Source: a bacterium (GTDB lineage: Bacteria; Oederibacteriota; JAJYGY01). Taken from it: a stretch of 27,363 nucleotides of DNA. Made by a program: the position numbers and the translations under genes. Each line of letters begins with the position of its first letter. The first letter of the stretch is position 1. Positions 2,801-26,162 of this stretch are shown here, one piece after another. Location of the stretch: positions 1 through 27,363 of the forward strand of contig JAJYGY010000071.1 in NCBI GenBank assembly GCA_021790555.1, in the 5' to 3' direction. The notes below the pieces were generated by a model, which searched no databases, had not been told where the DNA came from, and was given only the letters and a program-made list of their open reading frames with translations.

Positions 2801-2914
2801 CCGGGGCCCTGCCCGCTTGCCCTTTCGCGGGCCGCGGGTGAAAATGCTGCCGTGCGGCTGCCGCGGGCGCGGCCGCCCGGGCCCGAGACCAAACCATGGC
2901 GCCGGAGGGATGCC

Positions 2915-3721
2915 TTGAAGGCCAGAAAAAAAGTCATCGTGGTCATGCCGGCCTACAACGCCGCCAAGACCCTGGAGAAGACCTACCACGACATCCCCAA
3001 GGGCGTGGTGGACCAGGTCATCCTGGTGGACGACGTCAGCCGGGACGAAACCGTGGAGGTGGCCCGCCGCCTGCGCCTGAAGGTGGTGGTGCACCTGCAG
3101 AACAAGGGCTACGGCGGCAACCAGAAGACCTGCTACACCGAGGCCCTGCTGGCCGGCGCCGACGTGGTGGTGATGCTGCACCCGGACTACCAGTACGACT
3201 CGCGCCTGATCCCGGAGATGATCCAGCCCATCCTCAACGGCCGGGCCGATTTCGTGATGGGCTCGCGCATCATCGGCGAGGGCGCCCTGCGCGGCGGCAT
3301 GCCGCTGTGGAAATACGCCGCCAACCGCTTCCTCACCACCCTGGAAAACTTCGTTCTCAACCACCGCTTCTCCGACCTGCACACCGGGTTCAGGGCCTAC
3401 AGCCGGGCCCTGCTTTCCACCGTGCCCTTCGTGCTCAATTCCGACGACTTCGTCTTCGACACCCAGATGATCGCGCAGGCCAATTTCTTCGGCTTCCCCA
3501 CCACCGAAATCCCCATCCCCACCCGCTATTTCGCCGAGGCCTCCTCGGTGAACTTCCGCACCAGCCTGCGCTACGGATTCGGCACGCTCAGGGTCATGCT
3601 GCAATTGCTGCTTCAAAAAACGGGCCTGGCCCATTATCCTTACCTTGAGAAAAAGCTGCCCGAGGTCATCAGCCGCCCCTACCGCGACCGGATCCTGGGC
3701 CGCCGGGCCCGGCGTTCCTGA
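2915..3721 (+). CDS. GT2 family glycosyltransferase (DPM1-like, HPDYQY subfamily)
   Basis: VMPAYN, LVDDVSRD, NKGYGGNQK, MLHPDYQYD, DLHTGFRAY, F.FDTQMI motifs. GGAGG (2904-2908) lies 6 nt before TTG 2915. Confidence 0.9.
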   Translation: MKARKKVIVVMPAYNAAKTLEKTYHDIPKGVVDQVILVDDVSRDETVEVARRLRLKVVVHLQNKGYGGNQKTCYTEALLAGADVVVMLHPDYQYDSRLIPEMIQPILNGRADFVMGSRIIGEGALRGGMPLWKYAANRFLTTLENFVLNHRFSDLHTGFRAYSRALLSTVPFVLNSDDFVFDTQMIAQANFFGFPTTEIPIPTRYFAEASSVNFRTSLRYGFGTLRVMLQLLLQKTGLAHYPYLEKKLPEVISRPYRDRILGRRARRS

Positions 3722-3744
3722 ACCTTCCATTTTTGGGGCGATTC

Positions 3745-4800
3745 GTGTTCAAGGGAAAGACATTCTGGGGCCTGGTGGTCAGCCTGGCCTGCCTCTGGCT
3801 GCTGTGGATCTCCCTGCGCGCCATGGACTGGGAGAAGGTGCTGCTGGCGCTTGAGCAGGCCGACTACCTGTACCTGCTGCCCGCCCTGCTCCTCTACCTG
3901 GGCGGCTACATCAGCCGGGCCGAACGGGTCTCGCAGATCCTCAAGCCCACCAAGCGCGTCTCCTACCGCAGGGTGCTTTCGCCCCTCATCGTGGGCTTCA
4001 TGTTCAACAACATCCTGCCCGGAAGGCTGGGCGAGTTCGTCTTCGCCCACCAGCTGGGAAAGCAGGAGGGCATCTCGCGCACCACCTCCTTCGCCGCCGT
4101 GGTGATCTCGCGCATCCTGGACGGCTTCACCATCCTGTGCTTCTTCGTCTTCGGCCTGCTGGCCTTCCTGCCCCTTTCGGGCGGGACCGCCGCGCCGGGA
4201 GGCACCCTGGAGGTGGCCGGCCACCTCTTTTCCAAGCAGGAGATCCTGGGCAAGGTCTACCTGGCCGGCATCCTGGGCATGCTGGTGTTCGGGGCCGTGT
4301 TCCTGGCCTGCTTCTGCCTGATCGTGTGGAAGGACATCAGCATCCGCGTGGTCGACCGAATGCTGGTGGTGTTTCCGGACCGCTTTTCTCGGGGCGGCAA
4401 GCAGGCCCTGGAGAAGTTCATCTCCGGCCTGCTCATCCTCAAGAACGCCAAGGAGCTGCTGGGCGTCTTCCTCTTCAACTTCGTGCCCTGGGGCATGGAG
4501 GCCCTGACCTACCTCTTCACGGCCTGGACCTTCGGCCTGGACCTCAACATCCGCCAGGTCTGCCTGGTGATGGGCGTGACCAACCTGGCCATGATCTTCC
4601 CTTCGGCACCCGGCGGGCTGGGCCTTTTCGAGTTCGTGGGCATGGCCACCACCGGCCTGTTCGGCATCCCCACGGCCAAGGCCCTCACCTTCATGGTGAT
4701 GGTGCACGCCATCATCCTGGTGCCCATCGACCTGTGGGGCTTCTATTACCTGCGCCGCGAAGGGCTTTCCTTCCGCCAGGCCCTGTCGGAGAAGGGGTAG
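3745..4800 (+). CDS. Flippase-like membrane protein (lysylphosphatidylglycerol synthase TM / UPF0104 family)
   Basis: GFMFNNILPGRLGEF, SRILDG and IFPSAPGGLGLFE family motifs, multi-TM. Start could be GTG 3745 or TTG 3733. Confidence 0.85.
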   Translation: MFKGKTFWGLVVSLACLWLLWISLRAMDWEKVLLALEQADYLYLLPALLLYLGGYISRAERVSQILKPTKRVSYRRVLSPLIVGFMFNNILPGRLGEFVFAHQLGKQEGISRTTSFAAVVISRILDGFTILCFFVFGLLAFLPLSGGTAAPGGTLEVAGHLFSKQEILGKVYLAGILGMLVFGAVFLACFCLIVWKDISIRVVDRMLVVFPDRFSRGGKQALEKFISGLLILKNAKELLGVFLFNFVPWGMEALTYLFTAWTFGLDLNIRQVCLVMGVTNLAMIFPSAPGGLGLFEFVGMATTGLFGIPTAKALTFMVMVHAIILVPIDLWGFYYLRREGLSFRQALSEKG

Positions 4801-4840
4801 CGCCCCTTCCAGGACCGGGCCCGAGACCTGAGGACCAGGC

Positions 4841-6016
4841 ATGGGCGAAGACGACATCCTTTTGAACGCCGACGACCTGCTCGACATCTTCGGCGCGGCG
4901 GACGACAAGGCCGGGTCCAAGGAAGGCCTGGGCGACTTCCTGCAGGACATCTTCTTCGGGGGCGGGCAGGATTCCCCCGGGGAGGACGGGGGCCCCGTGG
5001 CGGCCAAGCCTCCCGTGGAGGCCGCGGCCGGGCCTGCCGCCCCCTCCCCGGCCCTCGACCCGGCCAGCTACGAGGAATTCAAGCGCCGCGTCATCGAGCG
5101 CCACGAGATGAAGCAGGCCGAGGAGGCGCGCCAGGCCGTCCAGGGCGCGCCGCCGGCGGCCCTGGACGGGGACGAGGAGCGCCGCCGCGAGATGGCGGCC
5201 CGCTACGAGGCCCAGCGCCGCGCCCTGGAGGCCGAGGAGGCCCAGGCCCGCCAGCGCGAGGAGGACGGCGCCGGGGACAAGGACAAGGAAGCCCGCATCC
5301 AGGCCATGGTGGAGAAGTACAAGAAGGCCAAGGAACAGGCCCAGGCCGCCCAGGCAGGGGCTTCGATGGGCCCCGGCACCGGGCTGGCCGAGGCCCTGGA
5401 CGACGGTGAAAAGGAGCGCCATTTCCGGGAATACCTGCAGTCGGTGAAGGCGCGCATGGCCTCGGGCGGCATGCCGCGGCTGCAGCACGCCCGGCCGGCC
5501 GCGCAGGCCCCGGAGTCCGCCCCGGGTCCCGCGCTGGATATCCCCGCCTGCCAGGCCCTGGCACGGATGTTCGAGGAGACCCGCCTGGAGCTGACCCGGC
5601 GGGTGGCCGACAAGATCGGCACCAAGGCGGCCCGCAGCCTGATGATGAAGACCCTTGAAAAGATCCTCAAGGCCCAGGCCCAGGTCTTCAACCGGGCCGC
5701 CCAGGACTTCCGGGGCCAGCTGCGCGCCGACGGGGCCCTGGACGAGGAGCGCCTGGCCCGCAACCTCCACGCCCTGCCCCAGGAAGGGCGCGCCGAGGCG
5801 GCGCAAAGGGCCCTGCACGACCTGATGGAGATGCGCTTCATCGCCATCGAGCTGGGCCTGGGGGTCCGCGCCAAGGGCTTCCTGATCTCGCAGACCCTCC
5901 AGGCCATCGAGGCCGCCTTCGAAAAAAAAGGCTATCCACCCGAGCTGGTCAAGTGGTACCTTGCCGAGGTCGTCCCCTCCACCAACCTGTCGGACGGGGA
6001 CGAAGAGACTTATTGA
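4841..6016 (+). CDS. Hypothetical soluble protein (acidic N-terminus, charged coiled-coil middle, helical C-terminal domain)
   Basis: 391-aa ORF with strong GC3 bias that fills the gap between flanking genes. No family recognised. Confidence 0.8.
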   Translation: MGEDDILLNADDLLDIFGAADDKAGSKEGLGDFLQDIFFGGGQDSPGEDGGPVAAKPPVEAAAGPAAPSPALDPASYEEFKRRVIERHEMKQAEEARQAVQGAPPAALDGDEERRREMAARYEAQRRALEAEEAQARQREEDGAGDKDKEARIQAMVEKYKKAKEQAQAAQAGASMGPGTGLAEALDDGEKERHFREYLQSVKARMASGGMPRLQHARPAAQAPESAPGPALDIPACQALARMFEETRLELTRRVADKIGTKAARSLMMKTLEKILKAQAQVFNRAAQDFRGQLRADGALDEERLARNLHALPQEGRAEAAQRALHDLMEMRFIAIELGLGVRAKGFLISQTLQAIEAAFEKKGYPPELVKWYLAEVVPSTNLSDGDEETY

Positions 6017-6025
6017 GGAGTCCGG

Positions 6026-7339
6026 ATGAGGATTGGGATCGTGGGCGGAGGCATGGCGGGACTGACCGCGGCCCTGGAGCTGGCCGAGGCCGGGCACCGC
6101 GTTTCGGTTTTCGAGAAATATCCCCAGTTCGGGGGCCTGGCCTCCACGGTGGAGGTGGCGGGCGCGCAGTTGGAGCGCTTCTACCACCACATCTTCTCCA
6201 CCGACCTGGACATTCTCGGCCTGATCGAGCGACTGGGCCTCTGGGACCGGTTGAAGTGGTACAAGGACGACACGGGCAACTGGTATCAGGGGCGCTTCTA
6301 TCCCTTCGCCTCCCCCCTGGAGATCCTGCGGTTCTCCCCCGTTCCCCTGTGGCAGAGGCTGAGGCTGGGGGCGGCCGCCTTCTACCTGACCCGCCTGAAG
6401 GACTACCGCGCGCTGGAGCAGGTGACCGCGCGGGACTGGATCACCTCCCACATGGGGGCGGACAGCTACCGGGTTTTCTGGGAACCCCTTTTGAAGGCCA
6501 AATTCGGGGCCCACGCCGAGTCGATTTGCATGTCCTGGATCTACGGCCGCGTGCATTCGCGCAAGGGGCCCAGCAAAAAGGGGACGCCGGCCAACAAGCT
6601 GGGCTACCTGGACGGCAGCGTGCGGGTGCTGGTGGAGGCCCTGGAGGCGCGCCTGAAGGGCCTGGGGGTGGACCTCAGGCCCGGCCTGGCCGTCAAGCGC
6701 CTGGTGGTGGGGGAAGGCCGGGTGCGGGGCCTGGAGACCCGGGAGGGGACCGGGGATTTCGACCGGGTGCTGGTCACCTGCGCCACTCCGCAGCTGCTGG
6801 AAATCGCCGGGGAGGCCCTTCCCGCCGGCCTGACCGACCGGCTGAAGTCGTTCCGCTACTACGGCTCCTGCGTCGCCATCCTGGAGCTGAAGCGGGGCCT
6901 CAGCCCCCACTACTGGGTCAGCGTGCTGGACACCACCATCCCCTTCCTGGCCGTCATCGAGCAGACCCGCATGATTTCCAGCGAAAACTACCGCGGCGAG
7001 ACGGTCCTCTACCTGGCCAAGTACCTGGATCCCGAGGACCCCTTCTACCGGCTTCCCGACGACGCGGTGATGGAGGATTTTTTGGGGCACCTGAAGCGGG
7101 TCTTCCCCTCCTTCGACGGCTCCCAGCTGATCCGCTCGCGGGTGATGCGGGCCCGCTACACCCAGCCCATCATCACGGTGGGGCACGGTTCCCGTGTGCC
7201 GCCGCACCGGCTGCCGGTGAAGGGGCTGTACCTCTGCAACATGACTCAGATCTATCCCGAGGACCGGGGCATGAGCTATTCCATCGGCCTGGGTTCCAAA
7301 GTGGCCGGGATGATGATGGACGACGCGGCCGAGGATTGA
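6026..7339 (+). CDS. NAD(P)/FAD-dependent oxidoreductase (amine oxidase / protoporphyrinogen oxidase-like fold)
   Basis: N-terminal IGIVGGGMAGLTAA..L...G..V.VFE dinucleotide fold, FGGLA, ERFYHHIF, C-terminal IYPEDRGM. RBS GAGGAG at 6015-6020. Confidence 0.88.
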   Translation: MRIGIVGGGMAGLTAALELAEAGHRVSVFEKYPQFGGLASTVEVAGAQLERFYHHIFSTDLDILGLIERLGLWDRLKWYKDDTGNWYQGRFYPFASPLEILRFSPVPLWQRLRLGAAAFYLTRLKDYRALEQVTARDWITSHMGADSYRVFWEPLLKAKFGAHAESICMSWIYGRVHSRKGPSKKGTPANKLGYLDGSVRVLVEALEARLKGLGVDLRPGLAVKRLVVGEGRVRGLETREGTGDFDRVLVTCATPQLLEIAGEALPAGLTDRLKSFRYYGSCVAILELKRGLSPHYWVSVLDTTIPFLAVIEQTRMISSENYRGETVLYLAKYLDPEDPFYRLPDDAVMEDFLGHLKRVFPSFDGSQLIRSRVMRARYTQPIITVGHGSRVPPHRLPVKGLYLCNMTQIYPEDRGMSYSIGLGSKVAGMMMDDAAED

Positions 7340-7368
7340 AACCGGAACCGCACCTACCAGGGAGAACC

Positions 7369-8100
7369 ATGGCCGCAAAGCGAGGAAACCGCAAGCCCGA
7401 CATCTCGGCCTTTTTTCCGGCCTACAACGAGGAGGCCAACATCGAGGCCCTGGCCCTGAGGACCGCCGCGGTGCTCAAGAAGCTGGCCCGCCGCTGGGAG
7501 GTCATCGTGGTCAACGACGGCAGCCGGGACCGCACGGCCGAGGTGGCCCGCCGCCTTTCCCGCCGCGATCCCCGCATCCGCCTGGTGGACCACCGGGTCA
7601 ACCAGGGCTACGGGGCCGCGGTGAAGTCCGGCTTCGCGGCCGCCCGCCACGAATGGATCTTCTTCACCGACGGGGACGGCCAGTTCGACGTCGGCGAGCT
7701 GGCCCAGTTCCTTCCCCTGGCCGGGGACCATGACCTGGTGGTGGGTTACCGCGTCAAGCGCGCCGACGCCCTGCAGCGCAAGCTCAACGCCTGGGCCTGG
7801 GGCAGCCTGGTGAAGGCGCTTTTCGGCCTGCGCGGGGTGCGCGACATCGACTGCGCCTTCAAGCTGGTGCGCCGGCGCGTCTTTGAGAAGATGCGCCTGG
7901 AGACCACGGGGGCCATGATCTCCACGGAATTGCTGGTGAAAGCGCAGAAAAACGGGTTTAAGATCGTGGAGAAGGGTGTGAGCCATTACCCCCGCCGCGC
8001 CGGGGTGCAGACCGGGGCCAAGCTGCGCGTCATCGCGCGGGCCTTCCGGGAGCTGTTCGGGTACTACTTCAAGTGGGGCCGGGAAGGCTATGGGATCTGA
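7369..8100 (+). CDS. GT2 family glycosyltransferase (polyprenol-phosphate glycosyltransferase-like)
   Basis: FFPAYNEE, VNDGSRD, NQGYGAA, FFTDGDGQFD, DIDCAFKL. Real start is ATG 7369 after GGGAG; the track's 5953 start is a shadow extension. Confidence 0.9.
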   Translation: MAAKRGNRKPDISAFFPAYNEEANIEALALRTAAVLKKLARRWEVIVVNDGSRDRTAEVARRLSRRDPRIRLVDHRVNQGYGAAVKSGFAAARHEWIFFTDGDGQFDVGELAQFLPLAGDHDLVVGYRVKRADALQRKLNAWAWGSLVKALFGLRGVRDIDCAFKLVRRRVFEKMRLETTGAMISTELLVKAQKNGFKIVEKGVSHYPRRAGVQTGAKLRVIARAFRELFGYYFKWGREGYGI

Positions 8101-9052
8101 GAGTCCCCAATCGAGGATCTGGGCCTGGGCGGGACTGCTGCTGGTCTGTCCGCGGCTCCTGTTGGCCAACGGAACGACCGGGGCCGACATCCTCCTGGCC
8201 CGGGTCGGCACCCGCGCCTCGGCCATGGGGCAGACCTACGTGGCCCTGGGCGACGACCTGCTCTCCATCCAGTACAACCCGGCCGGCCTGGCCGACCTCC
8301 AGAAGCCGGCCGTCAGCGTGCTGCACGAGGCGGCCATCGCCCAGGTGCAGTACGAGTACTTGAGCTGGGGACAGCACTTTCCCTTCGGGGCGCTGGCGGC
8401 CAGCGTCACCTACCGCCACATGCCCGACATCAACAACCCCGGCGCCGTGGATTCCGCCGTCTCGGCCTACGACGCGCTTTTCACGGTCAGCTACGCCGAC
8501 CATCCGGCGCGCTTCTTCCCCCAGTGGATTCCGCCTTCCTACTCGGACCTGTCCGCCGGCGTCACGCTCAAGTTCCTGCGCAGCCACCTGGCCAGCTACG
8601 ACGCCTACACCGGCGCCCTGGACGCGGGGATCAAAAAGGACCTGGGAGGGGGAATCGAGGGCGGCCTGGCCGTGGCCAACCTGGGGCCGCCCATCCAGTT
8701 CATCAGCGTGGCAGACCCGCTTCCGGCCGAGGCCATGGCCGGCCTGGCCAAGGAGCTGAGCATCTCCAGGAACAACCAGCTGAGGGCGGCGGGCGACTTC
8801 GAATATCCCTTCGACGGCGACCCGCGCATGCACGGCGGCATCGAGGACACCCTGGCGGGCATCCTGGCCCTGCGGGCCGGCTACATCCTGGAGAACGCCC
8901 AGAGCCTGGGGGGCTTCACGGCCGGGCTGGGCATCCGCCTGGAACAGGCCCCGCTGGTCTTCCACTTCGACTATTCCTACCAGCCGGTGTACTACGACGG
9001 GTTTTCCAGTTTCGAGCCCCAGCACCTGCTTTCAATGGAGCTGGAATTCTGA
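8090..9052 (+). CDS. PorV/PorQ-family outer-membrane beta-barrel, paralog 1
   Basis: Signal peptide, G.RASAMG.TYVAL.DD..SIQYNPAGL motif, amphipathic strands, LRAGY, FDYSY, and C-terminal Phe (HLLSMELEF). Confidence 0.8.
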   Translation: MGSESPQSRIWAWAGLLLVCPRLLLANGTTGADILLARVGTRASAMGQTYVALGDDLLSIQYNPAGLADLQKPAVSVLHEAAIAQVQYEYLSWGQHFPFGALAASVTYRHMPDINNPGAVDSAVSAYDALFTVSYADHPARFFPQWIPPSYSDLSAGVTLKFLRSHLASYDAYTGALDAGIKKDLGGGIEGGLAVANLGPPIQFISVADPLPAEAMAGLAKELSISRNNQLRAAGDFEYPFDGDPRMHGGIEDTLAGILALRAGYILENAQSLGGFTAGLGIRLEQAPLVFHFDYSYQPVYYDGFSSFEPQHLLSMELEF

Positions 9053-9076
9053 GGGGCCCCGGGACGGAGGGAGGGT

Positions 9077-16999: not shown

Positions 17000-18367
17000 C
17001 TATTTGATGTAGAAGCGCTTGGTCACCCGCTTGGCGAAGTAGCCGGCCGAGGAATAGGTGGCCTCCACCCGGATGGAGATCCGGTAGGCCCCGGGCGAGG
17101 CCAGGGCCCCCTTCTGGTCCCGGCCGTCCCAGTACAGGGACTGCTCCCCTTCCTCCATCTGCCCCCGGAAAACCGGAAAGACCAGGCCCCCCTGGTCGTC
17201 CAGGATGTCGGCCTCCACCTTGGCCCTTTCGGTGAGGGTGAAGTCGATGCGGAGCAGGCCCGTGCCGTCGCTCTGGGCCTGCCTCGAAAGCGCCAGGTTC
17301 TTCAGGTCCGCGCCGATCCAGAAGTACTGCGAGGAGTCGGCCTCCACCACGAATACCTGGCCGTAGTGCCGGTTGATGGCGATGCCGCGCGGCGAATCGA
17401 ACTGGCCGTCGCCCTTGCCCGGGCTTCCGTAGGAATCCAGGTAAACCAGCTGGCGCGTGAACTTGTGCACCTGGTCGTTGCTGCTGTCGGTCACCCAGAC
17501 GTTGTTGAAGTAGTCCAGCGCCAGGCTGTTGAAGTAAACCAGCAGCCGGCCCAGGTCGGCGCCTTCGGCCTCGGCCAGGAGGTCGCCCTGCGGGCTGAAC
17601 TTCTGCAGGCGGGTGTGGTAGTCGTCCACCACGAAAAGGGCCGATTCGCCGCAGCAGGTGTAGGGGTTGCGCGGGTCGGTCACGGCGATGGCCGTGGGGG
17701 CCTGAAGGCTGCTCCCCTGGCCCGGTTCCGACCCGAAGGAATAGAGGAAGTCGCCCGAGGGCGAGAAGACCTGGACGCGGTTGTTTCCGGTGTCGGCCAC
17801 GAACAGCCGGCCCTGGGAATCGAAGGCAACCCCGCTGGGGTCCTCGAACTGGCCGTCGCCGGAGCCCGGGCCGCCCAGGGCCCTCTGCCATTCCAGCCCG
17901 TCCTGGCGCAGCAGCAGAAGGGCCACCCGGTTGTTGCCGGCGTCGGCCACGGCCACGCGTCCGTTGGGGAGCATGGCCACCCCCACCGGGTGGTTGAAGC
18001 AGCCGGCGCCGGCGCCGGGCCGCCCGTACACGGCCAGGCCCTCCATGCTGGGGTTGTAGACCAGGCACGAGGCCCCCGAATTGACCCCGATCACCGTGAC
18101 CTGGTCGTCCTCCGGCCCGCTCTGCCACAGGTGCGCGCAGGCAAGGCCCTGGGGGTCGTCGAAACGCGTCTGGTCTCCCAGGAACAGCTTCAGCAGGGCA
18201 GGGGTGCCGCGGTGGATTCCGAACGGGGTGTGCCAGAAGCTCGGATACACCAGGGTGGTGGGCCCGTTGAGCAGGGACACGGCGGCGCGCAGGGACGGAC
18301 AGGCGCCAAGAAGGCCCCAGGCCGCGAGGCTGAGGCAGAGGGCTCGGAATCTTGGGCGGAAGGTCAA
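17000..18367 (-). CDS. Secreted NHL-repeat beta-propeller protein with C-terminal FlgD-Ig/CTD-like domain
   Basis: Signal peptide, repeated F..P.G.A..VAD.GN.RV units, and a tail WDGRDQKG...PGAYRI. Confidence 0.85.
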   Translation of the reverse strand: MTFRPRFRALCLSLAAWGLLGACPSLRAAVSLLNGPTTLVYPSFWHTPFGIHRGTPALLKLFLGDQTRFDDPQGLACAHLWQSGPEDDQVTVIGVNSGASCLVYNPSMEGLAVYGRPGAGAGCFNHPVGVAMLPNGRVAVADAGNNRVALLLLRQDGLEWQRALGGPGSGDGQFEDPSGVAFDSQGRLFVADTGNNRVQVFSPSGDFLYSFGSEPGQGSSLQAPTAIAVTDPRNPYTCCGESALFVVDDYHTRLQKFSPQGDLLAEAEGADLGRLLVYFNSLALDYFNNVWVTDSSNDQVHKFTRQLVYLDSYGSPGKGDGQFDSPRGIAINRHYGQVFVVEADSSQYFWIGADLKNLALSRQAQSDGTGLLRIDFTLTERAKVEADILDDQGGLVFPVFRGQMEEGEQSLYWDGRDQKGALASPGAYRISIRVEATYSSAGYFAKRVTKRFYIK

Positions 18368-18429
18368 GGGGGGGCGGTCCTCGGAGTCTGGGGCCGGAAT
18401 CCTGAATCTCTGCCGGAAAGGACGGCCGC

Positions 18430-18792
18430 ATGGCCTATTGCGTGGTTCTGATCACCGCCCCGGACGAGGAGGAGGCGGACAGGCTGGCCTCCCTGCTGGT
18501 CGGCGGAAGGCTGGCGGCCTGCGTCAACCAGGTGCCCGGGCTTAAGTCCACCTACCGGTGGAAAGGCGAGGTGCGGACCGCCCGGGAGGTGCTGCTCGTC
18601 GCCAAGACGCTCAAGACCCGGGTCAAGGACCTGATACGGTCGGTCAAGAAGAACCACTCCTACGGCGTGCCCGAGGTCCTCGCCCTGCCGGTCAAGCAGG
18701 GCAGCCGCGACTACCTGGAATGGATCACGGAGAGCCTGAAGCTTCCGTCCGCCGGGACCCCTCCCGCGGACCAACCCAAAAGGAGGTCCTGA
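18430..18792 (+). CDS. cutA: Divalent-cation tolerance protein CutA
   Basis: LAACVN, STYRWKGEV, E.LL..KT, HSY.VPE.LALPV..G...YLEWI. Confidence 0.92.
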   Translation: MAYCVVLITAPDEEEADRLASLLVGGRLAACVNQVPGLKSTYRWKGEVRTAREVLLVAKTLKTRVKDLIRSVKKNHSYGVPEVLALPVKQGSRDYLEWITESLKLPSAGTPPADQPKRRS

Positions 18793-19749
18793 ATGAAATC
18801 CCTGGTGGCCGGCGGAGCCGGCTTCATCGGTTCGCACCTTTGCGAGGCCCTGCTCAAGCGCGGCCACGACGTGGTCTGCGTCGACAACCTCATTTCGGGG
18901 CGCCTGCGCAACCTGCAGGGCCCGGCCATCGCCGGGGCCGGCAGGCGCTTCCGTTTCCTCAGACACGATATCCAGAATCCGCTCAAAATCAAGGTTGATT
19001 TTGTCTTCAACCTGGCCTCGCCGGCCTCGCCCCCTCATTACCAGAAGCACTCCATCTTCACCCTGCGCACGGGGAGCGAAGGCACCTACCAGCTGCTGCT
19101 GCTGGCCGAGCGCTCCAGGGCCCGCTTCCTGCAGGCCTCCACGTCCGAGGTCTACGGGGACCCCGAGCAGCACCCCCAGACCGAGGACTACTGGGGCCAC
19201 GTCAACCCGGTGGGCCCGCGGGCCTGCTACGACGAATCCAAACGCTACGCCGAGGCCCTGTGCATGGAATTCTGGCGCAAGCGGAAGGTGGACGTCCGCG
19301 TCATCCGCATCTTCAACACCTACGGCCCCCGCCTGGACCCCAAGGACGGGCGGGTCATCTCCAATTACGTGATGCAGGCCCTGCGCGGCCAGCCGCTCAC
19401 CGTGTACGGCACCGGCCGGCAGACGCGCAGCTTCCAGTATGTTTCCGACCTGGTGGAGGCCATCCAGAAGGTGATGTTCTCGCCCGGCCAGGCCGGCTGC
19501 GTGTACAACACCGGCAACCCCGGGGAATTCACCATGATCCAGGCGGCCCGCCTGGTGAAGAAGCTGACCGGCAGCTCCTCCCCCATCGTCTTCAAGCCCC
19601 TTCCCAAGGACGATCCGGCCCGGCGCCGTCCCGACATCACCAAGGTCAGGAAGGCCCTGGGCTGGCAGCCCAGGGTGCCCTTCGAAGAGGGCCTGAAGAT
19701 GACCATCCAGTGGTTCCAGGAGGAGCTCAAGGGGAGCCGGGCGGCCTGA
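18793..19749 (+). CDS. UDP-glucuronate decarboxylase (UDP-xylose synthase-like SDR)
   Basis: GGAGFIGSHLC, LASPASP.HY, ASTSEVYGDP, YWGHVNP.GPRACYDESKR, RIFNTYGPR, DDP.RR.PDI. Confidence 0.92.
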   Translation: MKSLVAGGAGFIGSHLCEALLKRGHDVVCVDNLISGRLRNLQGPAIAGAGRRFRFLRHDIQNPLKIKVDFVFNLASPASPPHYQKHSIFTLRTGSEGTYQLLLLAERSRARFLQASTSEVYGDPEQHPQTEDYWGHVNPVGPRACYDESKRYAEALCMEFWRKRKVDVRVIRIFNTYGPRLDPKDGRVISNYVMQALRGQPLTVYGTGRQTRSFQYVSDLVEAIQKVMFSPGQAGCVYNTGNPGEFTMIQAARLVKKLTGSSSPIVFKPLPKDDPARRRPDITKVRKALGWQPRVPFEEGLKMTIQWFQEELKGSRAA

Positions 19750-19759
19750 GCCGCCCCGT

Positions 19760-19788
19760 TTCGAAATTCCGCCTGGTTGTGCTAGAAT
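19760..19788 (+). promoter_or_regulatory. Promoter candidate for the radical SAM / YfhO genes
   Basis: TTCGAA (19760-19765), 17 nt, TAGAAT (19783-19788), with an extended TG at 19780-19781. Confidence 0.6.
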
Positions 19789-19816
19789 CCACCCCGAATC
19801 CAGGCCAGGAGGAGTC

Positions 19817-21271
19817 ATGCCCAGCGTCCTTTTGACGGTTTCGAACCTGCGCTCCATCTTCGGCGACACCAACGCCATTCCCGGCCACCCCCACACCGGG
19901 GTTGCCTACCTCTCCTCCTTCCTGAAGTCCAAGGGGGTCCATGTCGACCTCTACGACGAGCGCATGGACGGGCCGGAGCGCCTGAAGACCCTGCTGAAGA
20001 ACGACTACGACCTGGTGGGGGTCACGGCCTTCAGCTACTCGCTGCGCCACGTCTACGCGCTGGTGGAGAGGATCAAGTCGCTGACCCGCGCCCCGGTGGC
20101 CCTGGGAGGGCCCCACGTGTCGGTGTCCCGCCTGCAGGTATTCAAGGACTGCCCCGTCGACCTGGCCGTCAAGCACGAGGGCGAACTGACCACCCTGGAA
20201 CTTCTGGGGGCCCTGACCCGGCCCGAGCCGGACCTGGCCCAGGTCCAGGGCCTGATGTGGCGCAGGGGCGCCGACCTGGTCGAGAACGCCGACCGCCCCC
20301 TGATCGAGGACATCGACACCCTGCCCTACCCGGACTACGAGTCCTTCGGGCTGGAGCGCTACCCCTGCGCCAAGTCCAAGGCCCTGCCCTTCATCACCCA
20401 GCGCGGCTGCGTCTACAAGTGCAACTTCTGCTCGGTGCCGGTGTCCATGGGAAGCTCCTTCCGCGCCCGCACGCCGGAGAAGACCGTGGCCGAGCTGGAG
20501 CACTGGCACGCCAAGGGCTGGCGCCACTTCCAGATCAACGACGACGTCTTCAACCTGCACCCGCCAAGGGTCATCGAGATCTGCAGACTCATCGTGGAGC
20601 GGAAGCTGGACCTCACCTGGGAGCTTTACAACGGCATGCGCGTCAACGCCGTCAACGAGGAGCTGCTCGACTGGATGAAGCGGGCCGGATGCCGGCTCAT
20701 CTCCTACGGCTGCGAATCCGGCAGCCCGCGCATCCTCAAGATCATCCGCAAGGGCCTCACCAAGGAGATGGTCACCAAGGCCGTGGGCCTGACCCACAAG
20801 GCCGGCATCTCCTGCTCGGTCAATTTCATCGTGGGGCATCCCACCGAGACCTACCAGGACGCCCAGGAAAGCCTGCGCTTCGCCGAGGGCCTGCCGGCCA
20901 GCTTCATCAACTTCTACAACGACACCCCCTATCCCGGCACCGAACTTTTCGAGTGGGTGAAGGCCAACGCCCGCATCCTCTACCCCAAGTACCTGACGGA
21001 ACTGTCCTACAACTCGCGCGAGCCCATCTTCGACACGCCCGAATTCCCCCGCGACGAGCGCATGAAGATCCTGGACCGGGGACGCGACCTCTACGAGCGC
21101 AGCGTGCTGCGCTACCGCATGGGCCCCTTCTGGGGCGGCCTGGCCTTCCGCCTGAGCCGCTGGCCCTGGTTCAAGCAGCTGGGCATGCGCTTCGTCACCA
21201 ACACCCGGCTGGGCCACGCCATCTTCAGCCGCCTGAGCGTCAAGTTCGGGGGCATGGTGTGGGTGCGCTGA
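19817..21271 (+). CDS. B12-binding domain radical SAM protein (class B methyltransferase-like)
   Basis: GVAYLSSFL, LGGPHVS, HEGE, RGCVYKCNFC (CX3CX2C), INDDVF, YGCESGS, YPGTELF. RBS GGAGGAG. Confidence 0.9.
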   Translation: MPSVLLTVSNLRSIFGDTNAIPGHPHTGVAYLSSFLKSKGVHVDLYDERMDGPERLKTLLKNDYDLVGVTAFSYSLRHVYALVERIKSLTRAPVALGGPHVSVSRLQVFKDCPVDLAVKHEGELTTLELLGALTRPEPDLAQVQGLMWRRGADLVENADRPLIEDIDTLPYPDYESFGLERYPCAKSKALPFITQRGCVYKCNFCSVPVSMGSSFRARTPEKTVAELEHWHAKGWRHFQINDDVFNLHPPRVIEICRLIVERKLDLTWELYNGMRVNAVNEELLDWMKRAGCRLISYGCESGSPRILKIIRKGLTKEMVTKAVGLTHKAGISCSVNFIVGHPTETYQDAQESLRFAEGLPASFINFYNDTPYPGTELFEWVKANARILYPKYLTELSYNSREPIFDTPEFPRDERMKILDRGRDLYERSVLRYRMGPFWGGLAFRLSRWPWFKQLGMRFVTNTRLGHAIFSRLSVKFGGMVWVR

Positions 21272-21334
21272 ATTCCCGGCCCGACCCTTCTCCCGTCCCG
21301 GCGCGGCCCGGAACGGACCCTTTTCCGGAGCAGG

Positions 21335-23698
21335 ATGCCCGTCCCGCCTAAACCCCCTTCCCCCGCGCCCTGGCGCCTTTCCGGCCGCGCGGCCTTCCTG
21401 CTGGCCCTGTCCCTTTTCGTGGCGGTCTCGGCCTGGATGTTCTGGCCCTGCCTGGCCGGAGGCAGGATGCTGTGGGGCTCCGACCAGCTCAGCCTGGGCA
21501 TGCCCCTGCAGTTCTCGGCCCGGCGGGCCCTGGCGCGGGGCCAGTGGCCCCTGTGGATGCCCGAGCTGTTCTGCGGCATGCCCGGCCTGGCCTCGATGAA
21601 CAACTTCCTCTACCCCAGCTTCCTGCTCTACGCCCTGGCCGGCGTGCCGGTGCCCTTCATCTTCGGCTACGACGCCTTCCTGCAGGTCGTCCTCTCGGGC
21701 CTGGGAACCTACCTTTTCTGCCGCCGCCTGGGCCTGAGGGGCGGAGCCTCCCTGGTTTCAGGGCTGGCCTTCGCCTGTTCCGGCACCCAGGTCTCTCTGC
21801 TGTTCGCCGGCCACACCAACAACGTCATCGCCATCGCCCTCATCCCCTGGACCTTCTTCGGCATCCAGCTGGCCTTTTCCTCCGCCAGGGCCTGGCGCTG
21901 GTACGGGGGGTTCGGGCTGACCGGCGCCGCCCTGGCCCTGCAGATCCTGGGGGTGGGCATGCAGATCTTCGCCTACGACATCCTGGCCCTGGCGGCCTTC
22001 ACGGCCTGGCTGGCCTGGAGGGAGGGCATGCTCGGGCGCGCCGCCGCCCCGGTGGGCCCCTGGCACCGCCGGCCCTGGGCCCGCCTCGCCCTGGGCCTGG
22101 GTCTGATGGCCCTGCTGTGCACGCTGCTCTCGGCCCCCCAGCTCCTGCCCACGCTGCGCTACCTCGGGTATTCCCTGCGCCACGACTTCTCCTTCAAGGA
22201 TTTCGGCTCCTGGTCCTTCCCCCCGGCCGAATCCCTGCAGTGGATCGTGCCGGGCTTCTTCGGCTGGGCCTCGCCCACCTACTGCGGGCGCTGGGAATTC
22301 AACCTCACCTCGGAATACATGGGCCTGGTTCCCTGGGCCCTGGCCTTCGCCGCCCTGGCCGCCGGGTTCCGCCAGAAGCGCGGACCCCACCGCTTCTTCG
22401 CCGGCCTGGCCCTGGCCTCCTTCGTCATCGCCCTGGGGCACGACACGCCCTTGAGCCGCGTGTTCTTCCACCTGCCCGTGTACTCCGGGTTCCGGTCCTG
22501 GACGCGCTTCCTCTGCCTGCTGACCTTTTCGGTGTGCGTGCTGGCGGGACTGGGCCTGGACGCGCTCCTCGACCCCCGCGAGGGGGCGCGGGCCAGGCGG
22601 GGCGCCCTGGCCTTCTGCGGCCTGGCCCTGCTGGCCTCGGCCTTCTGCCTGGCCGGCGCGCAGGCCTGGGCCGCCGCCGCCGCCCCCAAGGCCGCCCCCG
22701 CCCTGGGGGGCCTGGAGCAGGCCCGCCGGGCCGTCCAGGCCCTGGCCTCCTCCTCGGCCCTGCGGGCCCTGGGCACGGCCCTGGCCCTGGGAGCGGGCTT
22801 TTTCCTCCTCCCGCGTCTGCCCCGCAAGCCCCTGGCCGCGGCCCTGGCCCTGGCCGGCCTGGTGGCCTTCCACCTGTGGGACGTCTCGCAGATGCACGCG
22901 CGCTTCATCACCTTCGCCGACCCGGACCAGGTGCTGGCGCGGCCGGCCTTCCTGAAGGACCTCCCGGACCCCCAGGCGCCCCAGCCCACCCGGTTTCTCG
23001 ATCCGGCCGGCCTGTTCCACATCAACCAGTGGGCCGACTTCGGAATGGAGTCCATCCAGGGCTACCACGGTATGTCCATGCAGAGCGCCGAATCCCTGCG
23101 CGAGGCCATGAAAGGCCATGTCCGGCGAGAACTGAGGCTGCTGAACGTCCGCTACATCCTGGAACGGCAGCCCCTCAACGCCCCGGGCCTGAAGCTGGTC
23201 GGCCAGGACGGCGGCTTCGTGTACGAAAACGAGGACGCCCTGCCCCGCGCCTTCCTGGCGGGCCGGGTCCTGTCGGCCGGCGATCCGGACCAGGCCTACG
23301 CCATGCTGGCGCGGCCGGATTTCGATCCGGGCAGGGACGTCATCCTGGTGCATCCTTCCGGCTTCGCGGCGGTCCCGGGCGCCAAGGGCGGCGTGGAATG
23401 GCTGAGCCGCGGCAGCGATTCCTTCGACCTGCGGGTCACGGCCGGCCAAAACGCCTACCTGGTGGTGTCGCAGTCCTGGTATCCAGGATGGAAGGCCTGG
23501 GTGGACGGCCGTGAAACACCCGTGCTTCAGGCCGACGGCGCGCTGCAGGCCATCGCCCTGCCCGCCGGCGGGCACCGGGTGCGCTTCGCCTTCGAATCCG
23601 CCCCCTTCCAGGCCGGGCTGGGCCTGGCCGGCCTGGGCCTTCTGCTGGCCCTGGGCCTGGCCTGGAAGGCCTGGAGGGAGTCCCCGGAAACGGCTTGA
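21335..23698 (+). CDS. YfhO-family GT-C membrane glycosyltransferase
   Basis: GQWPLWMP..FCGMP, multi-TM core, SIQGYHG, LRLLNVRYIL, NEDALPRAF, LVVSQSWYPGWKAWVDG...ADG.LQAI.LPAG.HRV.F C-terminal domain. Confidence 0.88.
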   Translation: MPVPPKPPSPAPWRLSGRAAFLLALSLFVAVSAWMFWPCLAGGRMLWGSDQLSLGMPLQFSARRALARGQWPLWMPELFCGMPGLASMNNFLYPSFLLYALAGVPVPFIFGYDAFLQVVLSGLGTYLFCRRLGLRGGASLVSGLAFACSGTQVSLLFAGHTNNVIAIALIPWTFFGIQLAFSSARAWRWYGGFGLTGAALALQILGVGMQIFAYDILALAAFTAWLAWREGMLGRAAAPVGPWHRRPWARLALGLGLMALLCTLLSAPQLLPTLRYLGYSLRHDFSFKDFGSWSFPPAESLQWIVPGFFGWASPTYCGRWEFNLTSEYMGLVPWALAFAALAAGFRQKRGPHRFFAGLALASFVIALGHDTPLSRVFFHLPVYSGFRSWTRFLCLLTFSVCVLAGLGLDALLDPREGARARRGALAFCGLALLASAFCLAGAQAWAAAAAPKAAPALGGLEQARRAVQALASSSALRALGTALALGAGFFLLPRLPRKPLAAALALAGLVAFHLWDVSQMHARFITFADPDQVLARPAFLKDLPDPQAPQPTRFLDPAGLFHINQWADFGMESIQGYHGMSMQSAESLREAMKGHVRRELRLLNVRYILERQPLNAPGLKLVGQDGGFVYENEDALPRAFLAGRVLSAGDPDQAYAMLARPDFDPGRDVILVHPSGFAAVPGAKGGVEWLSRGSDSFDLRVTAGQNAYLVVSQSWYPGWKAWVDGRETPVLQADGALQAIALPAGGHRVRFAFESAPFQAGLGLAGLGLLLALGLAWKAWRESPETA

Positions 23699-23777
23699 CC
23701 CGGCGGGAAGGCCGATTTACACCGAAAGGACCGTGTTTGCCGCGGCTTCCCGCGAGGCGCCTAAGGAGCCCTGTTCG

Positions 23778-24497
23778 ATGCCGAACCTTTCCCGAAAAGC
23801 CCTGGTGGTCATCCCCACCTACAACGAACGTGGAAACATCGCCGGCCTGGTGCCCCAGGTGCTGGCCCGCGACCGGCGCCTCGAGGTGCTGGTCGTGGAC
23901 GACGCCTCGCCCGACGGAACCGGCGACGAGGCCGAGCGCCTCCGGCGGCGTTTCCCCGGCCGGGTCCACGTGCTCCACCGCCGGGGCAAGGGCGGGCTGG
24001 GCAGCGCCTATGTGGAGGGCTTCGGCTGGGGCCTGAAACGCGGATACGGCCTGCTGCTGCAGATGGACGCGGACTGGTCCCACGACCCCAAGTACCTGCC
24101 GGATTTTCTGAAGGCCCTTCAGACCGCCGACGTGGTGGTGGGCACCCGCTACCAGGGAGGCCGGGTGAGCGTGGTCAACTGGCCCCTCTCGCGGCTGTTC
24201 CTTTCCACCGGCGCCAGCCTCTACGTGCGCCTGGTCACCGGCCTGCCGCTCTCCGACTGCACCGGGGGCTTCAAGGCCTTCCGCCGCCGGGCCCTGGAAT
24301 CCATCGGCCTGGACAAGGTCCGCTCGGACGGCTATTCCTTCCAGATAGAGATGAACTACAAGGCCCACCGGCGCGGCTTCCGCTTCGCCGAGGTCCCCAT
24401 CATCTTCATCGACCGCACCTCCGGAAGCAGCAAGATGAGCCCCCGCATCGTGCGCGAGGCCATCTGGCGGGTCTGGGCCCTGCGGCTGGGGATATAG
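23778..24497 (+). CDS. Polyprenol monophosphomannose synthase (Ppm1/DPM1-like GT2)
   Basis: VIPTYNERGNI, VDDASPDGTG, GKGGLGSAY, QMDADWSHDP, DCTGGFK, GYSFQIEM, RTSGSSKMS. AAGGAG precedes ATG 23778. Confidence 0.9.
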   Translation: MPNLSRKALVVIPTYNERGNIAGLVPQVLARDRRLEVLVVDDASPDGTGDEAERLRRRFPGRVHVLHRRGKGGLGSAYVEGFGWGLKRGYGLLLQMDADWSHDPKYLPDFLKALQTADVVVGTRYQGGRVSVVNWPLSRLFLSTGASLYVRLVTGLPLSDCTGGFKAFRRRALESIGLDKVRSDGYSFQIEMNYKAHRRGFRFAEVPIIFIDRTSGSSKMSPRIVREAIWRVWALRLGI

Positions 24498-24581
24498 GGG
24501 AATTCCGGGGGTCCTGGGGCGGACGCCGCCCCCTCGGGCCCAGTCGAAGGGCCGGGACTCCGGGACTTTCGGGACAAACCC

Positions 24582-26162
24582 ATGGACCATCCTCGCCTCA
24601 TCGCCGCCCTCCTGGCCGCGGCCCTCTGCCTTCCCTGGCGCGCCCTGCGCGCCGGGTCCGAAAGCGTGGGCACCACCGCCGCCGCCTTCCTGAAGCTGGG
24701 CTCGGGCGCCCGTTCGGCGGCCCTGGGGGACGCCGTGGTGGCGCTGGCGGACGACGCCAGCGGCCTTTCCTTCAACCCCGCCGGCATGTCGCAGATGCTT
24801 CAGGGGGAGGTCCAGGGCACCCACGTGCAGTGGTTCCAGGGCCTCACCTACGAAAGCCTCAACGGGGTCTTCCCGCTGGGCAGCCTGGGCGCGGTGGGCT
24901 CCAGCCTGGACGCCCTGGTGACGCCCCCCATGGAGCGCACCATCCAGGTGGCCCAGACCTCCGATCCCTCGCGCAACTACGTGGGTCTGGACACCTTCAG
25001 CCCCTTCGACCTGGAAGCCGCCTTCTTCTATTCCCAGGCCCTGGCGCCCCAGCTGCTGGGAGGGGCCGGTTTCAAGGTGCTCAACCAGGACCTGGCCGGT
25101 CAGGACGCCTTCAGCGTGGCCTTCGACTTCGGCGCCATCCTGCGCACGCCCCTGGCCGGGCTTCAGGCCGGCCTGGCCCTGCAGAACCTGGGCACGCCGG
25201 TCAAGCTCCAGGACCAGGCCTTCTCCCTGCCCACCCTGCTGCGCGCCGGCCTGTCCCAGTCCCTTTTCCGGGACCGGGTCCACGCCCTGGCCGAGGTCGA
25301 CCTGCCTTTCGACAACAGCCCGGTCCTGGCCCTGGGCCTGGAGGCCGAGCTGGCCGGCACCTTTTACCCGCGCGTGGGCTGGCGCGAGGACGGCCTTTTC
25401 AACCCCTGGTCCGCGGGCCTGGGGGTGGACCTGAGCCCCTGGCGCGTGGACCTTTCGGTGACGCCCCTGGGCGACCTGGGCCTGACCAGCCGGGCCTCCT
25501 TGAGCTACCTTTTCGGCGGCCCCTCGGCCTGGCTGGCATCGGACCGGCCGGCCCTGTCGTCGCTTTCTCCGGATTCGCCGGCGGTGATGCGGGTGATGGC
25601 CACCGCGCCCGACAAGGTGGGCGCCTGGGCCCTGTACCTCTACGACGCGCGCTCCCGCATCGTCCGGAGCCTCCAGGGCCACGGGCCCCCGCCGCGCGAG
25701 CTTTCCTGGAACGGCGCGCTTTCCACCGGGCTTCCGGCCCCCGAGGGGACCTACAAGGCCGTGCTGTCGCTGCGCTACGCCGAAGGGGGGGTGGTGTATT
25801 CCCCGCCCCTGGCCCTGCGGGTGGACAACCGCGCCCCCCGGCTGGCCTTCCAGGCCAGGCCGGATTCGCTGGCCCCGGGCGGCGGCACGGTCTACGTGCC
25901 GGCCTACTTCACCCCGCGCGCCCTCAACGGCGTCGCCTGCGCCGAATGGAAGCTGAAGGTGCTGGACGCTTCCGGCAGGACCTTCCGCACGCTCGAGGGC
26001 GGGGGCGGGCTGCCCGACGTCATCGCCTGGGACGGCCGGGGCGACGGCGGCCAGGAGTACGTGTCGGACAGGGACTACACCTTCGTCTTCAGCGCCACCG
26101 ACGTGCTGGGCCGCCGGGGCCAGGCCCCGCCCCTGACGCTGAGGGCCGTCTTCAGGCAGTGA
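24582..26162 (+). CDS. PorV/PorQ-family beta-barrel (paralog 3) fused to two FlgD-Ig-like modules
   Basis: AAFLKLGSGARSAALG...NPAGM, QWFQG; barrel ends PLGDLGLTSRASLSYLF (25514); then WNG...G.PAPEGTY and IAWDGRGDGG..Y..F motifs. Confidence 0.8.
   Translation: MDHPRLIAALLAAALCLPWRALRAGSESVGTTAAAFLKLGSGARSAALGDAVVALADDASGLSFNPAGMSQMLQGEVQGTHVQWFQGLTYESLNGVFPLGSLGAVGSSLDALVTPPMERTIQVAQTSDPSRNYVGLDTFSPFDLEAAFFYSQALAPQLLGGAGFKVLNQDLAGQDAFSVAFDFGAILRTPLAGLQAGLALQNLGTPVKLQDQAFSLPTLLRAGLSQSLFRDRVHALAEVDLPFDNSPVLALGLEAELAGTFYPRVGWREDGLFNPWSAGLGVDLSPWRVDLSVTPLGDLGLTSRASLSYLFGGPSAWLASDRPALSSLSPDSPAVMRVMATAPDKVGAWALYLYDARSRIVRSLQGHGPPPRELSWNGALSTGLPAPEGTYKAVLSLRYAEGGVVYSPPLALRVDNRAPRLAFQARPDSLAPGGGTVYVPAYFTPRALNGVACAEWKLKVLDASGRTFRTLEGGGGLPDVIAWDGRGDGGQEYVSDRDYTFVFSATDVLGRRGQAPPLTLRAVFRQ

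Follow-up and report, generated by a model that had tools for sequence, protein, structure and literature searches.

Gene content of the window

In this study, we analysed a window of 27,363 nt (contig JAJYGY010000071.1 of GenBank assembly GCA_021790555.1; the term window refers to this whole stretch) from an uncultured soil bacterium, which carries three genes for outer-membrane barrel proteins of the PorV/PorQ family together with genes for secreted proteins that contain modules resembling the C-terminal domain (CTD) of type IX secretion system (T9SS) cargo. In an initial annotation, region 8090-26162 had been read as a candidate T9SS-like export system outside the Bacteroidota, in which an expanded and possibly cargo-specific PorV family would be used in a divergent or minimal T9SS. 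As the G+C content of the window is high (65-72%), real genes were chosen by their third-position G+C content (GC3), and the three barrel open reading frames (ORFs), which lie where the initial annotation had placed them, are of the coding type with GC3 values of 0.88-0.92. The genes and modules on which the analysis centres are as follows.

8090..9052, plus strand: barrel 1, a PorV/PorQ-family outer-membrane barrel of 320 amino acids (aa) with a signal peptide (NF033709, 124 bits; Pfam UPF0164, 27.6 against 21.4)
14219..15307, plus strand: cargo gene, encoding a secreted protein with Thr/Pro-rich linkers and a type-A-like CTD (TIGR04183, 23.4 against 23)
15321..16283, plus strand: barrel 2, PorV/PorQ family, 320 aa, predicted cognate receptor or anchor of the CTD encoded by 14219..15307
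17000..18367, minus strand: NHL-repeat beta-propeller with a signal peptide and a C-terminal FlgD-Ig module (NHL, 74 bits; FlgD_ig, 43.4 against 27)
24582..26162, plus strand: barrel 3, 526 aa, with the barrel at residues 31-312 followed by two FlgD-Ig modules (NF033709, 130.7 bits; FlgD_ig, 32.8 bits)
15080-15262 (plus), 17048-17254 (minus), 25587-25793 (plus) and 25890-26114 (plus): the four FlgD-Ig/CTD-like modules of the window, located with a module hidden Markov model (HMM) that was derived from the window and refined by iteration over the genome

FlgD-Ig/CTD-like modules had been claimed for three proteins, and the module HMM returns exactly those three. Profile scans of the window proteins detected no SprA, GldK/L/M/N (PorK/L/M/N) or PorU, as had also been noted at the outset.

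Family membership and fold of the barrels

All three barrels score above the curated cut-off of 90 bits for NF033709, the NCBIfam model of the PorV/PorQ family (124, 130 and 130.7 bits for barrels 1, 2 and 3), which bears out their description as paralogues. The sequence motif on which that description was based is only partly correct as written: the blocks G.R..A[ML]G, AL and NPAG[LM] recur in all three proteins, but they are separated by 4 and 9 residues where 3 and 6 had been given. At the level of orthology the scores stay far below the cut-offs, with 35.9, 40.4 and 36.9 bits against 250 for the PorV equivalog NF033710, and 51.7, 72.5 and 65.6 bits against 220 for the PorQ equivalog NF033711. 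Barrels 1 and 3 also exceed the gathering score of Pfam UPF0164 (PF03687), the Pfam PorV model gives weak scores on the window barrels, and the FadL/TodX model Toluene_X (PF03349) has no match to any of the three at E<0.01.

Modelled with AlphaFold2 from an alignment of 50 sequences, barrel 2 has a predicted local distance difference test (pLDDT) score of 90.4 and shows 14 long strands behind an N-terminal helical segment; together with the Sec signal peptide this gives a FadL-like 14-stranded barrel with an N-terminal plug segment. In a Foldseek search with this model the PorV chains of 8GL6 and 6H3I came out at the top with a template modelling (TM) score of 0.70, followed by TodX and FadL at 0.5-0.6, and sequence identity is 20-21% to PorV and 13% to FadL. 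A sequence search of the Protein Data Bank (PDB) with barrel 2 found nothing. Because the fold is one shared by FadL and PorV, the assignment to PorV rests mainly on the sequence profiles. The clustering with FadL/TodX lipid transporters that the initial annotation listed among the results refuting its proposal was not observed, as PorV ranks ahead of FadL and TodX, though narrowly by fold. Distant homologues are already named 'PorV/PorQ family protein' in databases, and the presence of the family outside the Bacteroidota is therefore already visible in annotation.

Phylum-wide expansion of the barrel family

Among species-representative genomes, the closest relatives of barrel 2 (47-49% identity) are found in metagenome-assembled genomes (MAGs) labelled candidate division FCPU426, and more distant ones (27-37%) in Aerophobetes, Firestonebacteria, Elusimicrobia, Poribacteria, Zixibacteria, Ignavibacteria, Gemmatimonadota and others. 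FCPU426 is placed by NCBI among the 'Bacteria candidate phyla' and not in the FCB group, which agrees with the proposal that the lineage lies outside the Bacteroidota. The source MAG (2.52 Mb in 413 contigs, 76% complete) contains 28-33 NF033709 matches, and with our own barrel HMM we recover 27 barrels from the called ORFs and 31 loci when all six frames are searched. G004, a relative from a different family whose 2.9-Mb genome is complete in a single contig, encodes 35 barrels, and each of the 61 phylum genomes sampled has from 8 to at least 29 NF033709 matches, compared with 2-5 barrels in each of five GldM-positive Bacteroidota genomes of 2.9-4.8 Mb. The PorV/PorQ family is thus expanded about tenfold and throughout FCPU426, and the expansion supposed from three genes in one window extends to the whole phylum.

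In a tree of the barrels, for which supports were not evaluated, the Bacteroidota PorV proteins form a clade apart from all FCPU426 barrels. The latter fall into many deep lineages, several of which contain pairs from the source genome and G004, and some show lineage-specific duplications; the expansion is accordingly older than the split between the family of the source genome and that of G004. The nearest paralogue of barrel 1 in G004 is the one at locus L155 of this tree. As a separate observation, tandem same-strand genes of PorV-family barrels occur at G000:C48:1033-4973 and at the G004 loci L156 and L160, some of them with fn3 or FlgD-Ig extensions.

Cargo proteins and their C-terminal tails

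The protein encoded by 14219..15307 only just passes the TIGR04183 cut-off of 23 bits, scoring 23.4, and it also has weak matches to FlgD_ig (19.9 bits) and CHU_C and matches the CTD part of the PorU model. It carries the motifs PNPF and GLYF and a terminal ...TVLH, with the module at 15080-15262 and the tail ending at 15304. It is more likely that translation starts at 14276, as this would give a canonical signal peptide. A Sec-exported protein with a type A CTD at its extreme C-terminus, recognized by TIGR04183, is therefore present in the window, if only marginally so by score. The long Thr/Pro-rich linkers of this protein would be plausible O-glycosylation sites.

In the NHL-repeat protein the module ends 15 aa before the C-terminus. 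This protein and the barrel 3 fusion match FlgD_ig and not TIGR04183. No barrel gene lies downstream of 17000..18367 on its own strand, and it is thus an unpaired member of the cargo class.

Over the whole source genome the iterated module HMM finds 47 proteins, of which 40 are not barrels, so that both counts called for by the initial annotation, of PorV paralogues (about 31 loci) and of CTD proteins, are now available. In 38 of the 40 non-barrel proteins, 8-19 aa separate the end of the last module from the C-terminus. Thirty-seven non-barrel proteins have a module at the C-terminus and a complete 3' end; 31 of these terminate in a hydrophobic-hydrophobic-basic sequence, compared with 4% among other proteins, and G[VILA][YF] occurs within the final 45 residues of 35; many CTD modules furthermore begin with (A)PNP. 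Judged by sequence, these three features are hallmarks of type A T9SS CTDs. Signal-peptide-like starts are present in 13 of 16 cargo proteins with complete N-termini, and the PF18962 and CHU_C matches in other cargo stay below the gathering score. The passenger domains include GH81, GH18, a legume-type lectin, NHL, FG-GAP, DUF11 and fn3, which by analogy is the kind of repertoire exported by the T9SS of Bacteroidota.

Pairing of cargo and barrel genes

The stop codon of the window cargo gene ends at 15307 and barrel 2 starts on the same strand at 15321, leaving a gap of 13 nt. This arrangement recurs in the source genome, where nine CTD genes have a same-strand barrel within 400 bp downstream, 25 have none and four are interrupted by the end of a contig. 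Since 2.3% of ORFs are CTD genes, chance alone would yield 0.7 pairs of this kind among 31 barrels (binomial P = 2e-8). In the complete genome of G004, 25 of 35 barrels have a same-strand ORF with a CTD at its end just upstream, for which P < 1e-17 even when 10% of genes are taken to be cargo. Considered together, the pairs in these two genomes establish cargo-barrel pairing as a conserved organizing principle of the phylum, with some cargo left unpaired. Barrel 1 belongs to the 'orphan' barrels, which do not adjoin a CTD gene: no CTD module was found in any frame of the 753-bp gap 5' of it. It is possibly a general carrier.

We also predicted the complex of the window pair, as the initial annotation had advised, using residues 36-320 of barrel 2 and the last 95 residues of the 14219-15307 protein. 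The score was 0.89, compared with 0.00 for the best of three controls, for a single pair and with the possibility that the result reflects memory of the solved complex 8GL6. Among solved complexes 51 of 78 attained this mark, as did 2 of 108 mismatched pairs. In the model the CTD contacts loops L1-L7 of barrel 2, on the face opposite its N- and C-termini, as well as the extreme N-terminal segment; by the usual topology of outer-membrane proteins the contacted face would be extracellular. We take this prediction as a likeness to the PorV-CTD interaction and not as proof of binding. Together with the systematic order of cargo gene and then barrel gene, it lends support to the cargo specificity that had been suggested as a possibility.

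C-terminal extensions of the barrels

Barrel 3 is a fusion, the AlphaFold2 model of which (pLDDT 87) shows two confident beta-sandwich modules after the barrel, and a homologue search with this extension found two relatives only. Its terminus, ...VFRQ, is common to the paralogues C399 and C411 and unlike the tail signature of the cargo. C-terminal extensions are present in about half of the barrels of the source genome and in one-third of those of G004. Of ten that were scanned, four contain TPR domains, three fn3, one FlgD-Ig, and one FlgD-Ig followed by OmpA and a beta-helix, with no recognized domain in the remaining one; one barrel paralogue of the source genome ends in an OmpA-like motif. 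We considered whether the Ig modules of barrel 3 could be a tethered cargo CTD, and this is less likely, given that ...VFRQ lacks the cargo signature and that the extensions of paralogues are TPR, fn3 and OmpA domains. The counting of barrel 3 among the CTD-bearing proteins is hence the one part of the initial annotation of this gene that we do not uphold, at least in the sense of a sorting signal. Since the C-terminus of the barrel is periplasmic, as are TPR and OmpA domains, and since the terminus is without the cargo signature, the FlgD-Ig extension is probably a periplasmic spacer or scaffold.

A divergent SprA-like protein

A whole-genome profile search was likewise among the checks proposed at the outset. 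In the source genome it yielded collinear segments of the SprA model TIGR04189 (98 + 60 + 17 bits; cut-off 200 bits) in a 922-aa frame truncated by the end of a 2.8-kb contig. SprA-like frames are present in 58 of the 61 phylum genomes and are mostly 1,720-2,330 aa long, being shorter at contig ends. The Pfam SprA_N model scores 25.9 against 27, just under the threshold, in one relative, and weak collinear TIGR04189 matches were found in one Elusimicrobia and one Poribacteria genome. From these sequence matches, the SprA-like protein appears to be homologous to SprA but divergent.

In the two relatives, of six fetched, in which the neighbourhood of the SprA-like gene was annotated, no T9SS genes were found near it, and the neighbours are LptF/LptG, RNase R and a two-component system. 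The gene divergently adjoins an lptF/lptG-type pair at L097:12724-14947 and at L098:14498-16791; with Pfam, both LptF_LptG genes were confirmed in the former and one in the latter.

Two other genomes deserve mention with respect to SprA. The Ignavibacteriota IGN3 chromosome has a full-length SprA match of 762 bits (G063, C1:1106023-1112173), while GldL and GldM were not found there, and SprA without the motor may also occur inside the Bacteroidota as defined by GTDB. A MAG named 'uncultured Cytophagia' (G061) has strong SprA matches (262 + 204 + 185 bits). In this MAG, in 25 sampled genomes of its phylum and in a MAG labelled 'uncultured Bacteroidota' we found no GldM and no true GldK, and the NCBI label of G061 probably does not reflect its placement.

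Search for motor, ring and sortase

With the TIGR profiles, from which remote homologues may escape, GldM was found in 0 of 61 phylum genomes and GldL above the cut-off in 0 of 61. Completeness reaches 90% or more in 45 of these genomes, and several assemblies consist of 1-8 contigs. As a positive control, the same search was made in 26 genomes from the phylum of Ignavibacteriota IGN3, where GldM was matched in six and GldL in seven, five of them over the cut-off in each case; both proteins were detected in five of the 26. GldK (TIGR03525) and GldN (TIGR03523) were searched for in the 76% complete source genome alone and gave no match, nor did our own HMMs, made from five gldKLMN operons, match its six-frame translation at E<=10.

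For PorU, the source genome and the one genome sampled from its family have matches only to the CTD portion of the model (positions ~950-1095). Matches to the catalytic region (positions ~320-770) were obtained in a few genomes of other families (G032, G012, G036, G040, G019 and G048) with E values of 1e-10 to 1e-17. The matches at G032:C10:37702-39003, G012:C2:433374-433907, G040:C3:390453-390974 and G036:C1:863170-863691 lie in frames of 1,160-1,510 aa, and a PorU-like peptidase may hence be encoded in part of the FCPU426 phylum. Apart from these CTD-type matches, the whole-genome search for porK/L/M/N and porU came out empty in the source genome. The expectation of a divergent or minimal T9SS fits this picture, in which a SprA-like protein is present, GldL and GldM were not found in 61 genomes, and GldK, GldN and PorU were not found in the source genome.

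A model for cargo export in FCPU426

We consider it fairly probable that the phylum-wide barrel expansion, the cargo with type-A-like CTDs and the SprA-like translocon together constitute a T9SS-like export route in which many of the barrels are dedicated to individual cargo proteins. The cargo would comprise dozens of Sec-exported hydrolases, lectins and repeat proteins per genome, each with such a CTD at its end. According to this model, cargo would cross the inner membrane by Sec and fold in the periplasm, and its CTD would be bound at the extracellular-loop face of a PorV-like barrel, which for many cargo proteins would be a dedicated one encoded directly downstream. The remaining, unpaired cargo would presumably use a shared 'orphan' barrel. 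The pair of cargo and barrel would work with a single divergent SprA-like giant barrel as the translocon. Since a PorU-type sortase was not found in the lineage, the cargo would probably be held non-covalently on its barrel at the cell surface, or simply be released. The C-terminal extensions of the barrels (FlgD-Ig, fn3, TPR and OmpA) might serve as periplasmic scaffolding or peptidoglycan tethers. Binding of the CTD, for which we have the complex prediction, dependence on the SprA-like protein and the role of the barrel as anchor or shuttle are the steps that we infer.

More tentatively, and with somewhat less than even confidence, we suggest that this is a relative of the T9SS without a motor and largely without a sortase, in which one SprA-like translocon would serve dozens of cargo-dedicated barrels that keep the protein encoded upstream of them, through its CTD, on the surface. 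The core of SprA, PorV and CTD would then be older and more widely distributed than the T9SS of Bacteroidota, with GldKLMN and PorU as later additions.

Several findings weigh against such a route. All results are computational, and the source MAG is only 76% complete and very fragmented. Of the 34 scorable cargo genes in the source genome, 25 do not adjoin a barrel, and the complex prediction, for which memory of the SprA-PorV-CTD complex 8GL6 is possible, concerns a single pair and so does not address specificity. The summed SprA-like score exceeds the cut-off in only 5 of 61 phylum genomes, and neither Pfam SprA_N nor a PDB sequence search gave anything significant with the source-genome fragment. 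The SprA-like gene never adjoins barrels or cargo, having LptF/LptG as neighbours instead. A canonical T9SS moreover needs the GldLM motor, and no substitute energizer was identified. A rival reading is that the lineage has a canonical, complete T9SS with extra PorV paralogues, the motor PorL/M, the ring PorK/N and the sortase PorU being too divergent for the profiles or located in unassembled DNA. The state of the source MAG, with its 413 contigs, is consistent with this idea, as are the Bacteroidota-built TIGR models, which have matches in only 5-6 of 26 control-phylum genomes and are thus of uncertain sensitivity for remote homologues, and the matches to the PorU catalytic region in a few FCPU426 genomes of other families. 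Against it stands the failure to find GldM, or GldL above the cut-off, in any of the 61 genomes with 45 of them at least 90% complete and several in 1-8 contigs; the HMMs from gldKLMN operons were also without a match in the source genome, and the FGE-sulfatase domain of GldK is absent from it, while the same model has matches in the control genomes. We therefore regard a hidden canonical system as unlikely.

Alternatively, the cargo-barrel pairs could be autonomous and independent of SprA, with the barrel acting as a surface anchor, a periplasmic receptor or a conduit of its own, and with an unrelated role for the SprA-like protein. The location of the SprA-like genes beside lptF/lptG and away from the cassettes would be expected in this case, the frequent TPR or OmpA extensions are of a periplasmic type, and UPF0164 barrels are known from lineages without a T9SS, as seen from the Pfam naming and the spread to Elusimicrobia and Poribacteria. 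On the other hand, FadL and PorV structures show a plugged 14-stranded barrel that is too narrow for folded glycoside hydrolases, the SprA-like protein co-occurs with the barrel expansion in 58 of 61 genomes, and the CTD interface is predicted on the side opposite the termini, as for PorV-CTD. Autonomous pairs thus seem rather unlikely to us. We consider it highly improbable that the barrels transport hydrophobic small molecules as channels of the FadL/TodX type, with the adjacency of CTD genes being incidental. The shared fold would allow it, but Toluene_X has no match to the window barrels at E<0.01 whereas NF033709 is over its cut-off, identity is higher to PorV (20-21%) than to FadL (13%), and the predicted complex passes; incidental adjacency cannot explain why 25 of 35 barrels in G004 are in pairs, with P<1e-17 even at 10% cargo.

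Comparison with known systems

The export route that we propose shares with the T9SS of PorV (LptO), SprA/Sov and type A CTDs (6H3I, 8GL6) the NF033709 family, the 14-stranded fold with PorV as best structural match and, in divergent form, a SprA-like protein. The cargo likewise has a C-terminal beta-sandwich with PNP..., G-x-Y and a terminal hydrophobic-basic sequence, and the CTD is predicted to sit on the loop face. It differs in that the FCPU426 barrels are not PorV orthologues (36-40 against 250 bits for NF033710), in that there are about 30 paralogues, many of them encoded with their own cargo, rather than one general shuttle, in that GldLM, GldKN and PorU were undetected, and in that the lineage lies outside the Bacteroidota and the FCB group.

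Similarity is also seen to the UPF0164/FadL-like proteins of Treponema (PF03687), the model that barrels 1 and 3 match above the gathering score. Periplasmic C-terminal extensions with TPR domains, resembling those of FCPU426 paralogues, occur in some treponemal proteins, and a role in lipid or nutrient uptake is presumed for the treponemal group. We know of no CTD-cargo pairing or SprA homologue in spirochaetes.

The genetic logic of a cargo gene next to the gene of its cognate outer-membrane barrel has a precedent in the PorP/SprF barrels, where genes for type B CTD cargo are clustered with a cognate barrel for which specific handling or anchoring has been proposed, as for SprB-SprF in Flavobacterium (PMC10202324). 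Here the barrels are of the PorV/PorQ and not the PorP/SprF (TIGR03519) type, the CTDs are type-A-like, and pairing is dominant (25 of 35 barrels in one genome) rather than an adjunct to a general PorV route. For an anchor role without a sortase, the best model is provided by PorQ-PorZ and PorV-PorU of Porphyromonas gingivalis, where one particular surface protein remains permanently attached, through its uncleaved CTD, to a PorV-family barrel (PMC10202324). Those partners are sortase machinery, whereas the FCPU426 partners are hydrolases, lectins and repeat proteins, and with 52-72 against 220 bits the FCPU426 barrels do not qualify as PorQ orthologues.

One review confines the T9SS to the Bacteroidota (PMC10202324), another to the FCB superphylum (PMC11205867), and a proton-driven motor is described as a requirement. 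In the searchable literature, we found nothing on PorV-family expansions, on cargo-barrel cassettes of the PorV family, or on T9SS parts or any secretion system in FCPU426. In FCPU426, outside the FCB group, a putative translocon homologue, a carrier family and a sorting tail are present while the motor, the ring and, in the lineage studied here, the sortase were undetected, and the carrier family is expanded into cassettes of one barrel per cargo. New in this study are the tenfold phylum-wide expansion, the 25 of 35 pairing in a complete genome, the full-size SprA homologue and the controlled non-detection of the motor. The many barrels, often encoded right behind CTD-bearing cargo, and the SprA-like protein, with no motor or sortase detected, suggest that the outer-membrane core of type IX secretion is working, in a different form, well outside the Bacteroidota. 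If this is true, FCPU426 would offer a natural minimal system in which to ask what SprA and PorV do without GldLM, as well as dozens of naturally occurring cognate CTD-barrel pairs from which the recognition code could be deciphered. It would in addition bear on the evolution of the T9SS, and explain how uncultured soil bacteria possibly display glucanases, chitinases and lectins on their surface.

Other genes in the window

The remainder of region 8090-26162 encodes PilT, epimerases, two B12-radical-SAM enzymes, a cNMP-binding protein, CutA, YfhO and GT2. An Rfam scan of the window gave no match, and the sequence from 7340 to 8089, about 750 bp on the 5' side of barrel 1, is without a convincing coding frame. 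Convergent to barrel 1 and 24 bp from its end lies a gene for a PilT/PilU-family type IV pilus retraction ATPase (9077-10141, minus strand; TIGR01420, 480 bits), and nothing ties this gene to the barrels. At 173-2800 on the plus strand, an 875-aa protein is encoded that has a C-terminal PA14 domain and no CTD module and is otherwise unannotated. Interleaved with the barrels, at 2852-7339 and 18793-24497, is a glycan toolkit consisting of a GT2, an LPG_synthase_TM-type membrane protein, an FAD amine oxidase, three epimerase/dehydratases, the two B12-binding radical SAM enzymes, a YfhO-type membrane glycosyltransferase and a second GT2.

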